From Dictyostelium discoideum (Eukaryota), in NCBI GenBank assembly GCA_000004695.1, contig CM000153.2, forward strand, positions 96,001 through 160,000: 64,000 nt of DNA, given 5' to 3'. Below are positions 9,576 through 15,283 of this stretch, piece by piece (position 1 is the stretch's first letter; every line of letters starts with the position of its first letter). The notes below the pieces were generated by a model. The model was not told the origin of the DNA, searched no databases, and was given only the letters and a program-made list of their open reading frames with translations. A program made the translations under genes and the position numbers.

Positions 9576-10310
9576 ATGGGAAAAAGAGATAAAAAAATAA
9601 TAATAGAAGAACCAGAAGAACTAGAGGAAGCAGAAGATGTTTTTGAAGTTGAAAAAATTTTAGATAAAAGAGTTCAGCATGGAAGGATTCAATATAATGT
9701 AAGATGGATAGGATTTTCATCAGATTATGATACATGGGAAGATGAAGATAATGTTGCAGGTTGTCCAGAACTAGTTAAAGAATTTGAAAGTTCAAGACAA
9801 CAAGAAAAAAAAAAAAGTAAAAAAAGAAAACATACTATAATTAACGACGATCCAACTGCAGTAGAAATATCATCATCATCATCACCACCAACCACCAAAC
9901 CTTCATCATCAACAACAGCAGCAGCACCAGCATCATCATCAGCATCAGTAACAACAAAAACAGCAACAGCAACAGTAACAACAGATACATATTTTTCTAA
10001 TAATACTACATCAACACACCAAAAAACAAATCATTCAGTTGAGGTTGAAGAAAATATAAAAAATGAATATATAAAATTTGGTGTACCTTATATTGAAGGT
10101 GTTGGTTTTGAAAATGGTCATTGTGTTGAGGAGGTTATAGGTTGTAAACCCTTTGGTCAAGATAATACACTATTTTTCTTTGTTAAATGGAGAGACCAAG
10201 AAAAATTATCTTGGGTACCAAATGAAATCCTTAAACATAAAGAACCATTACAATTAATTGAGTTTTATGAAAGTAGACTTAAATTTGGTTATAGTGGTCA
10301 GCCAAGTTAA
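9576..10310 (+). CDS. Heterochromatin protein 1 (HP1) homologue with an N-terminal chromodomain and C-terminal chromoshadow domain, 244 aa.
   Basis: The chromodomain is EDVFEVEKILDKRVQHGRIQYNVRWIGFSSDYDTWEDEDNVAGCPELVKEFE. The chromoshadow domain is CVEEVIGCKPFGQDNTLFFFVKWRDQEKLSWVPNEILKHKEPLQLIEFYESRLKF. A Ser/Thr/Ala-rich hinge separates them. Dictyostelium has HcpA/HcpB/HcpC, and I cannot tell which paralogue this is. Confidence 0.85.
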   Translation: MGKRDKKIIIEEPEELEEAEDVFEVEKILDKRVQHGRIQYNVRWIGFSSDYDTWEDEDNVAGCPELVKEFESSRQQEKKKSKKRKHTIINDDPTAVEISSSSSPPTTKPSSSTTAAAPASSSASVTTKTATATVTTDTYFSNNTTSTHQKTNHSVEVEENIKNEYIKFGVPYIEGVGFENGHCVEEVIGCKPFGQDNTLFFFVKWRDQEKLSWVPNEILKHKEPLQLIEFYESRLKFGYSGQPS

Positions 10311-11174: not shown

Positions 11175-11750
11175 ATGGTTATAAATAAATTAATATTATT
11201 AATTTTATTATTTTTTTGTAAAATTTCATATGTTTTTACACAAAAATTACCAGATGGATTTTGTCCATCACCTTTAATTTATAAAAATTCAACTGACAGA
11301 ATTAGTGATATCAATAGAGGTTATCAATTTATTGGAGAAACAAATTGTGTACAACCTTGTCCATCTTTGGTTTATTCAGAATCTGATTGGAAAAATTTTT
11401 TTGATGCTAGTTTATATGGTGGAGCAATTTCCATATTTTGTTCATTATTTTTATTAATAACCTATAGTCCATTAGTAAATAATAAACATAATAGACATAC
11501 TATTTCAATTATGTTTTTATTTTCTGGAATTTTTATAATGTTGGCATCAAATGGAAGAGTTTTTTGGAATAATAATGAAGGATATTTTGATAGAATTTGC
11601 CCTGAAAAAGGTAGATTTGCAAGACAATCTGATAGATATTGTTTAGCTATGGGAATATTTTATCAATTTGGTTGTTTAACTGGAATGATGTATGTAATTA
11701 TTGATCAATTATAAAAACAAGAAAATAGTAAATTATTAATAAATTATTTT

Positions 11751-11792
<42 letters not shown>

Positions 11793-12589
11793 GGTGGTGG
11801 ACAACATTATCTGTTGATGTATGGATGACAATTAAAAAGATTAAAATTTCAAATCGTCAAATATTTTATTATGCTTGTATTGTTAATTTTTTAGCGATTT
11901 TCTTAACATTTATACCAATTGCAAGAGATCAATATGGTGCTTCAAATTTTGGAATTGGTTGTTGGATTTTAGGTTTGTGGGATCAAGTTTTTGGATTTTG
12001 GGCACCATTAGGTATTTGTTTAACAATTGGTTGTATATTTATTACTCTTATAATGTATGAAATTTATAAAGCAACAGGTCAAATTAAAAAGAAATTATTA
12101 TTAAAATATTATAAACCACTCGTTTTGATAATTTTAATGTTTTTTGAATTTTTTTATATGTTTATTTTCATAACATATATTATTGATCATAGAAATAAAT
12201 ATAATGATGAAGTTGCTGAATATATAGTTTGTATATTAATAAATTCTGGAAATCCAAATTATGATGAAATTTGTAAAATTAAAAGATCAATTCCTCCTGC
12301 AGCTCAATTTTTATTCTTTTTATTTTCTAGATTAATGGGTTTTGAAGGTGTAATTTTCTATGGATTAACTAATCAAACTAAAAGAATATGGTTAAGATCA
12401 TTTTGGTTTAATAATAGAATTTCATTAAAATTTAGATCTTCTTTTAATATTTCTTCAAGTACAAATAGTAGTACAAATACATTTGAAAAACAAACTCCAT
12501 CACATTTAGTTGACCCAATTGATCAATTTGATAATATTGAAATTTCAAATAATCAAAATATAGAATTATCTCAAATCGAAAACAAATAA
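11175..12589 (+). CDS. Frizzled/smoothened-like 7TM receptor lacking the CRD (Fsl family). Two exons, 11175-11689 and 11794-12589, about 436 aa.
   Basis: Exon 1 has a signal peptide, a Cys-containing linker ([10 protein letters not shown]...[10 protein letters not shown]) and TM1-3. It ends ...GMM with the GTATGT donor at 11690 in phase 2. The acceptor is tag|G at 11794. Exon 2 (G|[15 protein letters not shown]...) carries TM4-7, followed by a frizzled-like K-T-x-x-x-W type motif ([15 protein letters not shown]). The junction is supported by the 7TM topology continuing across it. Confidence 0.6.
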
Positions 12590-13029: not shown

Positions 13030-14049
13030 ATGAAATTATTAATTCTTTTAATAATTTTAATTATAAATTTAAAATTGTATTTATGTAATTTAGAAATTGA
13101 AAATTTATTTATTGAATGGACAAATAAATATAATAAAATATATAGTAATAAAGAATTTTATATGAGATTTAATAATTTTAAAAAGAATAAAGAATATGTT
13201 GATCAATGGAATGAAAAACAATTGGAAACTATTTTAGAATTAAATTTTTTTGCTGATTTATCAAGAAACGAATATATAAATAATTATCTTGCAAGTTTTA
13301 TTGATATTTCAAATATTGAACAAAAGAATACTAAATATGAAGGAAATTTAAAAAATAATTTTAACAATTCAATAAAATCAATTGATTGGAGAAATTTTGA
13401 TGCAGTAACACCTGTAAAAAATCAAGGTTTATGTTCTGGAGCTGGTTATTCATTTTCTGCAATTGGAGTAATAGAAAGTTCACATTTTATTAAAAATAAA
13501 GAATTAATAACATTATCTGAACAAAATATTATTGATTGTACAACTGATATGGGCAATAATGGTTGTATGGGTGGACTTGCTTTAATTGCATTCGACTATA
13601 TTATTAAACAAAAAGGAATTGACAGTGAATTTAATTACCCATATGAAGGATACCTAATAGAACCATATGAAGGTAGAGGAAGATGTCGTTATAATTCATT
13701 CTATTCAAAAGCTTCAATTAGTTCATATATTGAAATTGAAAGATTCAATGAGAATGAATTAACTCAATCTCTAATAAAATCTCCAGTATCTGTAATGATT
13801 GATGCTTCACAATTATCATTTATGCTTTATAAATCTGGTGTTTACAAAGATCCATCTTGTTCAAGTACAATATTAAATCATGGAATATTAAATATTGGAT
13901 TTGGTGTGACACCTGAAAATGGTAATGAATATTATATTTTAAAAAATTCTTTTGGTTCGAAATGGGGAATGAAAGGTTACATTTATTTATCTAGAAATTT
14001 TAATAATCATTGTGGTATATCTTCAGTTGGAATTTCTGTTGTTATTTAA
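13030..14049 (+). CDS. Secreted papain-family (C1A, cathepsin-L-like) protein with the catalytic Cys replaced, a predicted pseudoprotease, 339 aa.
   Basis: It has a signal peptide (MKLLILLIILIINLKLYLC) and an I29-like propeptide (EWTNKYNKIYSNKEFYMRFNNFKKNKEYV). The active-site region reads QGLCSGAGYSFSA where papain has QGxCGSCWAFS, so the catalytic Cys becomes Ala and the following Trp becomes Gly. The His (NHGILNIGFG) and Asn (YYILKNSFGSKWGMKGYI) regions are conserved. Confidence 0.7.
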   Translation: MKLLILLIILIINLKLYLCNLEIENLFIEWTNKYNKIYSNKEFYMRFNNFKKNKEYVDQWNEKQLETILELNFFADLSRNEYINNYLASFIDISNIEQKNTKYEGNLKNNFNNSIKSIDWRNFDAVTPVKNQGLCSGAGYSFSAIGVIESSHFIKNKELITLSEQNIIDCTTDMGNNGCMGGLALIAFDYIIKQKGIDSEFNYPYEGYLIEPYEGRGRCRYNSFYSKASISSYIEIERFNENELTQSLIKSPVSVMIDASQLSFMLYKSGVYKDPSCSSTILNHGILNIGFGVTPENGNEYYILKNSFGSKWGMKGYIYLSRNFNNHCGISSVGISVVI

Positions 14050-14199: not shown

Positions 14200-15283
14200 T
14201 TAAAGCAAAGCAAAGATAATTGAGAAAATAATTAAAGCAAAGAATGGAATAACAGTTGATGATGAACCTGGTTCATTGTCGTTATAACTTTCACTGTTCA
14301 TACTTGTTGACATATCACCATAGTATGAACCATTTGCACAAATGACATCCCATTTCCAATCCATTGGAAGATTTAAACTGTAATCAGCATCTTGAATTAA
14401 AGCAATGACACCTTGACCACAACGAGAACCACCAACATCACTATTACCTTTATCAGTAAAGTTATGAACGGCCATACCTCTACCAATGACTAAAGCGGCA
14501 GTGACATGATCAGTCTCATAATAATAGTAACCAGTATCCATCATATCTTGAGAGAAAGCACAGAAATTACCAAAATCACCATAATGTCTAGTTCCAGATG
14601 GTGGGAGAGAATGTTCTTGACCAGTCTTTAAGAAATGACCACCAATTGAAGTACCATTATCCGATGAAACATCACCAAATTGATGAACATGGAAACCATG
14701 AGCTTGATAAGATAAACCGGAAACTTTAGCAGATACTTGAATGAATGAAGAATTGAGTGCTTTGAATAAAACTCTACCTTCAATGTAATCACCTTTGGTG
14801 ATGGTAGTATTGTAAACTACTGCTAAACCAATTGCATTCTCTAAATTTGAATAGGATGATGCAGTGTTGACACCTGTTAATTTAGATTTATCAAATGATG
14901 AATAATCGATATTACCAACACCAATAGTACAAAAACTAATCATATCACCAATTACTGATTTACTTGGATCTGAACAATCATAACTACCACCATAGATTGC
15001 AATTGAACGACCAATAATTGAATTGGCATCATCTTTAATATTTGGAATGTTTAATGAAATTGTTTGTGCTTCAACATTACCACCATTTGCTTGAATATTA
15101 CCAATATCACCTGCACGTGGTGTTCCACTTGGACATCCTGCTGTCTTTACATTGGTTGGATCAAATACACTTCCTAAATTGGTCATTGATGATGGATTAT
15201 AACCATATGTTAAAATTTGTGCAGCAAATTGTGTATTTTGTGCATATGATGTTGTAAAATCAAATGTAATATTTAATGTTGTT

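Follow-up and report, generated by a model that had tools for sequence, protein, structure and literature searches.

The gene DDB_G0282991 of Dictyostelium discoideum, which lies in the 64,000-nucleotide stretch of DNA analyzed here (positions 96,001 to 160,000 of contig CM000153.2, forward strand; hereafter the window), very probably encodes a catalytically dead member of the cathepsin L family (papain, C1A) that is maintained by selection for a non-proteolytic role. The coding sequence is complete and intron-less: a single open reading frame (ORF) without an internal stop occupies 13030..14049 on the (+) strand and comprises 339 codons, followed by the stop codon. The clean, full-length frame described in an earlier annotation made from the letters of the window (hereafter the sequence-only reading) was thus borne out. 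The translation is identical to the D. discoideum AX4 protein XP_639299.1 / EAL65939.1 / UniProt Q54RQ2 and, on the basis of its Pfam I29 and Peptidase_C1 domains, is a homologue of pre-pro-cathepsin L. Every source names it just a “hypothetical” or “uncharacterized” protein. No paper naming the gene was found in the full-text literature under DDB_G0282991, Q54RQ2, DDB0204828, or XP_639299, and a search for Dictyostelium pseudoproteases returned nothing relevant.

Our alignments revealed that the nucleophile of the papain family is absent from this protein. The canonical motif QGxCGSCWAFS has 11 residues, whereas the corresponding motif here, QGLCSGAGYSFS (amino acids 132-143; 13423..13458 on the (+) strand), has 12. 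A HMMER alignment to procathepsin L and MAFFT alignments with 15, 33, 62, and 242 sequences place a one-residue insertion, Ser136, directly after Cys135, the counterpart of Cys22. With this gap, Gly137 matches Gly23, Ser24 is replaced by Ala138, Cys25 by Gly139 (codon GGT, 13444-13446), and Trp26 by Tyr140, and Ser141-Phe142-Ser143 matches the closing Ala/Ser-Phe-Ser; Tyr at the Trp26 position is also present in active relatives. The nucleophile column of the protein holds neither Cys nor Ser, and Gly139 offers no side chain there. The sole Cys of the motif, Cys135, aligns with Cys22, the disulfide partner of which, Cys179 (Cys65), is kept, and in no alignment does the Cys of CSGAG fall at the catalytic position. 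The sequence-only reading was therefore correct that the motif is altered and the nucleophile gone, but its residue assignment was off by one: it took Cys25 to be Ala and Trp26 to be Gly, because it read the motif without a gap and so misaligned the following FS. The assignment of Gly139 to the nucleophile position rests on the sequence alignments; in the predicted structure, the secondary-structure program DSSP assigns a helix from residue 133, which does not settle where the gap lies. A GxSxG-type serine-hydrolase motif around Ser136 was also considered and rejected, as the G-L-C-S-G spacing does not fit it.

The altered motif is shared by the orthologues of the gene. With only A138S or S143A variation, it recurs in four further D. 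discoideum / D. cf. discoideum assemblies (FIR, FIW, FIY, and FIZ), in D. citrinum, D. firmibasis, and D. dimigraforme at the syntenic position, and in the short-read assemblies of at least six sequencing runs (Logan). The substitution is therefore conserved across species, and a sequencing or strain variant of an active gene, which the sequence-only reading had raised as a way to be wrong, does not account for it. We compared the active site among 242 relatives, consisting of 9 protein sequences of this clade (from 8 genome assemblies and the Logan read assemblies) and 233 non-clade sequences. The nucleophile column holds Cys in 229 of them, Ser or Phe in 4, and Gly only in the 9 clade sequences, all of which carry it. 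The Ser136 insertion is likewise confined to the clade (0 of the 233 non-clade relatives). Since Cys is found in 229 of the 233 non-clade relatives and none has the Ser insertion, the combination of Gly and inserted Ser at the active site is not due to chance. The four non-clade relatives without the nucleophile Cys are a silicatein, a protein of Drosophila eugracilis (Ser), a Joint Genome Institute (JGI) metagenome protein (Phe), and a protein of the leafhopper Macrosteles quadrilineatus (Ser, with a Cys one position earlier); 4 of 233 gives a rough base rate of 1-2% among close cathepsin-L-like relatives.

The remainder of the catalytic machinery is retained in a modified cleft. Gln132, His284, and Asn306 occupy the positions of the oxyanion-hole residue Gln19, the general base His159, and the orienting Asn175 and are invariant in the clade. 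His284 (codon CAT, 13879..13881, (+) strand) corresponds to His159 of papain and His163 of cathepsin L. In Asn306-Ser307-Phe308 (13945..13953, (+) strand), the Asn of the triad is kept, and the next Trp (Trp177 of papain, Trp189 of cathepsin L), which forms the S1' wall, is replaced by Phe; this column is Trp in 227 of the 242 sequences and Phe in all clade members (NSW to NSF). The cleft-lining residues Gly181-Gly182, Leu183, Met256, Leu282, Asn283, and Gly285 are invariant in the clade, and Trp312 is also fixed. Of the 91 columns with at least 85% conservation among active relatives, the protein retains 72 and departs from 19. Almost every such change is fixed in the clade; they include Ser24 to Ala, Cys25 to Gly, Trp26 to Tyr, Trp189 to Phe, and Tyr/Trp changes in the beta-barrel lobe. 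The alignments also revealed a clade-specific insertion of seven residues, YLIEPYE (amino acids 208-214; 13651..13671, (+) strand), in the surface loop between the YPYE motif and Cys219 (Cys98). The pattern Y-L/V-I/V-E-P-Y-E is present in all clade members, with a predicted local distance difference test (pLDDT) score of 66-83, and is absent from human cathepsin L and the other relatives among the first 20 sequences of the 62-sequence alignment. Thus, the protein has the Gly nucleophile position and otherwise intact cleft of a Cys-to-Gly pseudo-cathepsin, yet Trp189 to Phe, Ser24 to Ala, the inserted Ser136, and a variable residue 333 mark the cleft as a modified one.

The domain architecture is that of a complete cathepsin precursor. 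Pfam detected the I29 propeptide inhibitor domain (Inhibitor_I29, PF08246) at amino acids 27-82 (13108..13275, (+) strand; E 2e-11) and Peptidase_C1 (PF00112) at amino acids 116-333 (13375..14028, (+) strand; E 1.5e-62, 212 bits against a cut-off of 20.7), the latter covering profile positions 3-215 of 220. This whole-domain match places the protein in family C1A by homology, while active C1A members carry the nucleophile Cys25 at the N-terminus of the central helix, where this protein has Gly139. The propeptide carries, on direct reading of the sequence, an ERFNIN-type pattern (E42..R46..F50..N53..V57..N61) and an ELNFFAD motif of the GNFD type; together with the invariant His284 and Asn306, this agrees with the earlier description of the propeptide and His/Asn regions as intact. 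HMMER returned 174 Protein Data Bank (PDB) sequence matches at E <= 1e-3, the best of which was procathepsin L (9.8e-61); among solved structures, human procathepsins L, S, and K come closest (E ~1e-60), with alignments that start at residue 22-29 and end at residue 333. An AlphaFold2 model built on the 62-sequence alignment had a mean pLDDT of 92.6 and a predicted template modeling (pTM) score of 0.89, with low confidence limited to the linker and the clade-specific loop. In a Foldseek search against the PDB, procathepsins L, S, and K were again at the top (E ~1e-31), with template modeling (TM) scores of 0.82-0.84 when query-normalised and 0.88-0.92 when target-normalised (~0.83 and ~0.9), and mature cathepsins S and L superpose on the model at 0.9-1.4 A. 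The protein is thus predicted to have the two-lobed papain fold with an N-terminal I29 propeptide, as the sequence-only reading had supposed for the fold.

The N-terminus is hydrophobic (MKLLILLIILIINLKLYLC), with a Met-Lys start followed by ~17 hydrophobic residues, and hydropathy suggests a signal peptide at amino acids 1-20 (MKLLILLIILIINLKLYLCN; 13030..13089, (+) strand). The mean Kyte-Doolittle hydropathy of amino acids 3-14 is 2.9-3.5 in 8/8 orthologues, while the sequence there varies freely. Six cysteines, invariant in the 8 orthologues, would form the pairs Cys135/179, Cys170/219, and Cys277/328, by homology with Cys22-Cys65, Cys56-Cys98, and Cys156-Cys209 of cathepsin L. The hydrophobic N-terminus and these conserved cysteines are the two features that suggest secretion. 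The linker between the propeptide and the mature domain (amino acids 95-115; 13312..13374, (+) strand) is variable and indel-rich, with a pLDDT of ~54 and only 5 invariant columns of 28; it contains the sole N-glycosylation sequon, N112-N-S, and 7 of 8 orthologues retain it.

Selection analysis indicated that the gene is constrained, consistent with the earlier view that it is not a decayed gene. The coding sequences of 8/8 orthologues are intact, with no frameshift or stop, in lineages separated by up to 0.6 synonymous substitutions per synonymous site (dS). The ratio of nonsynonymous to synonymous substitution (dN/dS), estimated by the Nei-Gojobori method, was 0.17-0.32 for the whole gene, 0.11-0.24 for the mature domain (dS up to 0.63; Fisher tests of dN < dS, 2e-5 to 1e-19), 0.18-0.44 for the propeptide, and ~1 for the linker, which contains indels and is modeled with low confidence. 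In every interspecies comparison, dN was significantly below dS for both the whole gene and the mature domain (p down to 1e-22). As local controls from the same genomes, the exon of an adjacent Cu/Zn superoxide dismutase (SOD) gene gave 0.22-0.35 and three other neighbouring exons gave 0.04-0.25. The constraint on DDB_G0282991 is therefore similar to that on its secreted or membrane-anchored SOD neighbour and below that on typical housekeeping genes.

Two observations concern the individual genomes. The D. citrinum gene model (GCA_054859145.1, 6001-7011 of the locus) has 314 amino acids and drops 22 codons as an intron; the 336-codon frame is open and aligns throughout, and the intron is almost certainly an annotation artefact. 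ACTFIR, ACTFIW, and ACTFIY (D. discoideum / D. cf. discoideum) differ from AX4 in DDB_G0282991 by a dS of ~0.12-0.13 and 4-6% of residues, and the neighbouring SOD exon differs between ACTFIZ and AX4 by a dS of 0.125. These values are large for one species, suggesting divergent lineages or cryptic species in the D. discoideum complex.

As far as annotated proteomes show, the gene occurs only in the D. discoideum species group, where its locus is fixed. Its nearest non-clade relatives are active enzymes with 39-44% identity: a metagenomic amoebozoan protein, D. purpureum DICPUDRAFT_153222, and P. violaceum CYY_004435. The D. purpureum protein was rejected as an orthologue, as it has an active motif, is not beside the SOD gene, and shares more identity with other active dictyostelid cathepsins (50-53%) than with the DDB_G0282991 protein (40%). 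Searches of the annotated proteomes of D. purpureum, P. violaceum, H. album, and T. lacteum yielded no orthologue. In a bootstrapped neighbour-joining tree of Kimura distances, the clade was monophyletic (100% bootstrap) and nested within the amoebozoan radiation of cathepsin L, with a stem 0.47 substitutions per site long; no sister group of the clade emerged, and long-branch effects are likely. The distance to animal cathepsin L was 1.25 for the clade versus 0.82-1.05 for the active dictyostelid paralogues. Silicatein-M2 falls outside the amoebozoan sequences, the clade falls among them, and its residue is Gly and not the Ser of silicateins. These data depict a burst of change that came after the loss of the nucleophile or coincided with it, and then purifying selection, seen in at least four named species; such a picture usually marks a pseudoenzyme with a new role.

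Published expression data indicate that the mRNA is regulated in the first hours of cAMP-pulsed starvation. In additional file 7 of Rosengarten et al. 2015 (PMC4403905), DDB_G0282991 is listed in suspension_UP under UP_Hr04_gradual and in suspension_DOWN under DOWN_Hr06_rapid; it occurs four times in this file, of which the first two occurrences were located, with columns assigned from the tab layout. It is not in the two filter-development sheets of the file. By the definitions of the authors, up-regulation is counted back from the reference hour and down-regulation forward, at a false discovery rate (FDR) <= 0.01; in cAMP-pulsed suspension, the transcript has therefore risen by 4 h and declines after 6 h. 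DDB_G0282989, presumably the immediate chromosomal neighbour, is listed directly below DDB_G0282991 in both columns, and the two appear to be co-regulated in cAMP-pulsed cells. The Logan short-read contigs, which run collinear with genomic DNA and end at homopolymer stretches, were rejected as RNA evidence.

We propose the following mechanism. Papain-family zymogens cannot activate themselves without the nucleophile. The signal peptide would take the protein into the endoplasmic reticulum (ER), where the I29 propeptide would chaperone folding. Lacking Cys25, the protein could not self-activate, and would either remain a propeptide-capped zymogen or be trimmed in trans by the many active cathepsins of Dictyostelium. 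It would then sit in the endolysosomal or extracellular space, where the processed form, presenting a largely intact cleft, may bind but could not cut ligands of the papain cleft. The likeliest ligands would be cystatin-type inhibitors, in which case the protein might act as a sink and thereby tune the active cathepsins, or else specific peptides or proteins, for which it might be a substrate trap or receptor. With a transient mRNA maximum at ~4-6 h of cAMP-pulsed starvation, the gene may serve the physiology of the early aggregation stage rather than bulk digestion. Within the reading as a pseudoprotease, however, the specific decoy mechanism would be a tentative proposal at most, more doubtful than probable.

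Several points weigh against a maintained, catalytically dead binding protein. The inactivity, secretion, trans-processing, and ligand of the protein are all inferred. A dN/dS of 0.2-0.3 represents moderate and not strong constraint, and the retention of His, Asn, and Gln19 over a short divergence is statistically uninformative. Residue 333 (window 14026-14028), which corresponds to Ala214 of cathepsin L at the bottom of S2, takes about six states in 8 sequences, and the C-terminal strand around it is variable, which indicates drift in part of the cleft. A search of the supplements of a 2026 life-cycle proteome (PMC12821622) did not find the gene, a weak negative given that the tables are partial, and neither did a search of those of PMC6830349, PMC6198379 (cell-type RNA-seq), and PMC7078664 (response to bacteria), which are partial or selected-gene tables. 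At residue 333, the eight orthologues have V, N, I, I, I, M, F, and M, with differences even among D. discoideum-complex strains. In this small sample of 8, the variation could stem from a relaxation of constraint, or from diversifying selection acting on a ligand pocket. A peptide ligand that sits in S2 like a substrate and is tightly conserved is disfavoured by the drift of the cleft.

Some of this evidence allows other explanations, which concern what the protein does and whether it does anything. The stem burst, the Gly-lined cavity beside His/Asn/Gln, the seven-residue loop, the hypervariable S2-bottom residue, and the mRNA peak at ~4-6 h would all suit a neofunctionalised, lineage-specific binder, that is, an extracellular receptor or carrier for a small-molecule or peptide signal in early aggregation and not a mere inhibitor sink; we consider this rather unlikely, but if true, a young, taxon-restricted developmental factor would have been derived from a digestive enzyme. 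Somewhat less probable still is that the propeptide is the functional unit, with the stable zymogen or the released I29 domain inhibiting cathepsins and the mature domain serving as a folding or delivery scaffold. The I29 domain is indeed intact with its ERFNIN- and GNFD-type motifs and is under purifying selection (0.18-0.44), and a protein without its nucleophile cannot auto-activate; the need for processing in trans has been shown for TrCB1.6, a Cys29-to-Gly cathepsin B paralogue of the flatworm T. regenti (PMC7054455). However, the mature domain is more tightly constrained (0.11-0.24) than the propeptide, which is unexpected for a mere scaffold, and it is the mature domain that carries the new loop and the changes fixed specifically in the clade. 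Moreover, the known free-standing I29 inhibitors have lost the catalytic domain altogether.

It is very improbable that the protein is still a hydrolase, in which a relocated or different nucleophile (Ser136, water, or a thiol in trans) works with His284, Asn306, and Gln132, and Gly139 reflects a changed chemistry comparable to Ser in silicateins. His, Asn, and Gln19 are invariant in the clade, as is the inserted Ser, located three residues ahead of the former nucleophile position; the cleft-forming Gly-Gly is fixed, as are most S2/S1' residues. According to the alignments, however, Ser136 directly follows the disulfide-bonded Cys135, in the loop before the helix N-terminus and not at the helix start that faces His, and keeping three residues over a dN of ~0.1 is expected by chance. 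To our knowledge, no papain-family enzyme with Gly at position 25 has been reported to be active. TrCB1.6, with Gly for Cys29, is inactive and becomes active again only on Gly-to-Cys reversion (PMC7054455). We assign an equally small probability to a decaying or dispensable paralogue that is drifting toward a pseudogene, with residual constraint or constraint against a misfolded secretory protein. Its dN/dS of 0.2-0.3 does exceed that of three of the four neighbouring control segments, 19 of the 91 family-conserved columns are changed, the S2-bottom residue and C-terminal strand vary, the protein was not found in the proteome supplements searched, and D. purpureum, P. violaceum, H. album, and T. 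lacteum yielded no annotated orthologue. Yet 8 ORFs have stayed intact in lineages that differ by a dS of up to 0.6. For the whole gene and for the mature domain, each comparison between species put dN significantly below dS (p down to 1e-22). The substitutions typical of the clade have become fixed and are not scattered, the mRNA is regulated, and the constraint equals that on the adjacent SOD gene. We therefore favor a dead cathepsin L homologue that is kept for a non-proteolytic role; the prediction of a proteolytically dead papain-fold protein in the sequence-only reading held wherever it could be checked.

The gene is surrounded by extremely A/T-rich intergenic DNA, which is typical of Dictyostelium. 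Its convergent neighbour at 14200-15186 on the (-) strand is the Cu/Zn SOD homologue (Sod_Cu, E 7.6e-31); the two stop codons are just 150 nt apart, and the tail-to-tail pairing is kept in every genome assembly examined (8/8). The SOD protein carries a long extension at its N-terminus and ends in a hydrophobic tail (…VIPFFALIIFSIIFALL), suggesting a membrane- or GPI-anchored extracellular SOD. Upstream, a two-exon gene at 11175-12589 (+) encodes a multi-pass membrane protein of ~436 amino acids without a Pfam match, and two genes upstream, an HP1-like protein is encoded at 9576-10310 (+), with chromo (E 1e-20) and chromo-shadow (E 1.5e-10) domains. The HP1-like gene is syntenic in the D. discoideum-complex assemblies, and the membrane-protein gene is kept in D. 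citrinum, D. dimigraforme, and the D. discoideum complex. At the D. firmibasis locus, tblastn found no match to the membrane-protein gene, and a different opposite-strand gene precedes the cathepsin-like gene there, which points to a local rearrangement upstream of the latter. A functional gene cluster was rejected, as the neighbours (the HP1-like chromodomain protein, the multi-pass membrane protein, the Cu/Zn SOD, and an SNF2 helicase) have no thematic link, as expected for a eukaryotic chromosome.

This study adds a clean, evolutionarily dated case to the papain-fold pseudoenzymes; it opens no new category of biology and would not surprise a specialist. The host is genetically tractable and has many active cathepsins and its own cystatins, and it could reveal what a dead cathepsin does in a phagocyte. 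The annotation of the gene should read non-peptidase homologue, and not “hypothetical protein” or a domain-transferred “cysteine protease”.

The active cathepsin L-like proteinases of dictyostelids, such as D. firmibasis RB653_001417, D. purpureum DICPUDRAFT_153222, and H. album “cysteine proteinase 3”, share the family, the I29 and C1 architecture, the length, and the disulfides with the DDB_G0282991 protein, at 39-44% identity. They differ from it in having the canonical QGxCG[SG]C[WY] and NSW motifs and neither insertion. Their identity to one another is 45-53%, against only ~40% to this protein, which forms a long branch of its own. In soybean P34 (Gly m Bd 30K), the catalytic Cys is likewise replaced by Gly, and binding of a small-molecule elicitor has been reported for P34. 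Like the DDB_G0282991 protein, P34 is a pre-pro papain-family protein of the secretory pathway that lacks the catalytic Cys and is kept as a stable protein; the passage of PMC2292165 that cites Kalinski et al. 1990 describes it as a vacuolar protein without enzymatic function. In contrast, P34 is a plant seed storage-vacuole protein of independent origin. Silicatein (silicatein-M2) and Plasmodium SERA5 (PMC5500368/PMC4671257) also have the nucleophile Cys replaced, the His and Asn kept, and a non-proteolytic role; however, their residue is Ser, a potential nucleophile, and not Gly. Silicatein has a defined alternative chemistry, silica deposition, and SERA5 is a large multidomain protein of the parasitophorous vacuole.

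TrCB1.6 is the best functional model for the DDB_G0282991 protein. This cathepsin B paralogue is transcribed but inactive, and reversion of Gly to Cys restores its endopeptidase activity; it is processed in trans by active paralogues and legumain, and forms a complex with cystatin only once the propeptide is removed (PMC7054455). Both TrCB1.5 and TrCB1.6 are, like the protein described here, pro-enzyme paralogues of the papain superfamily in which the nucleophile Cys is replaced by Gly and the remaining triad and the fold are kept. They differ in being of the cathepsin B type with an occluding loop, in coming from a parasitic flatworm, in having no insertion before the nucleophile, and in being recent paralogues of highly similar active isoforms, whereas the DDB_G0282991 protein is of the cathepsin L type, is only ~40% identical to any active relative, and has the extra Ser insertion, W189F, and the seven-residue loop. 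As far as its residues tell, the DDB_G0282991 protein is a C1A member by homology but not an active peptidase by its catalytic feature. Functionally, it is grouped with the scattered pseudo-cathepsins, such as P34, TrCB1.5/1.6, SERA5, and silicatein, which are well known and each of independent origin. Particular to the present case are the Gly nucleophile position with a one-residue insertion before it, W189F, the new loop, and an occurrence limited to the D. discoideum group, where the locus is fixed.

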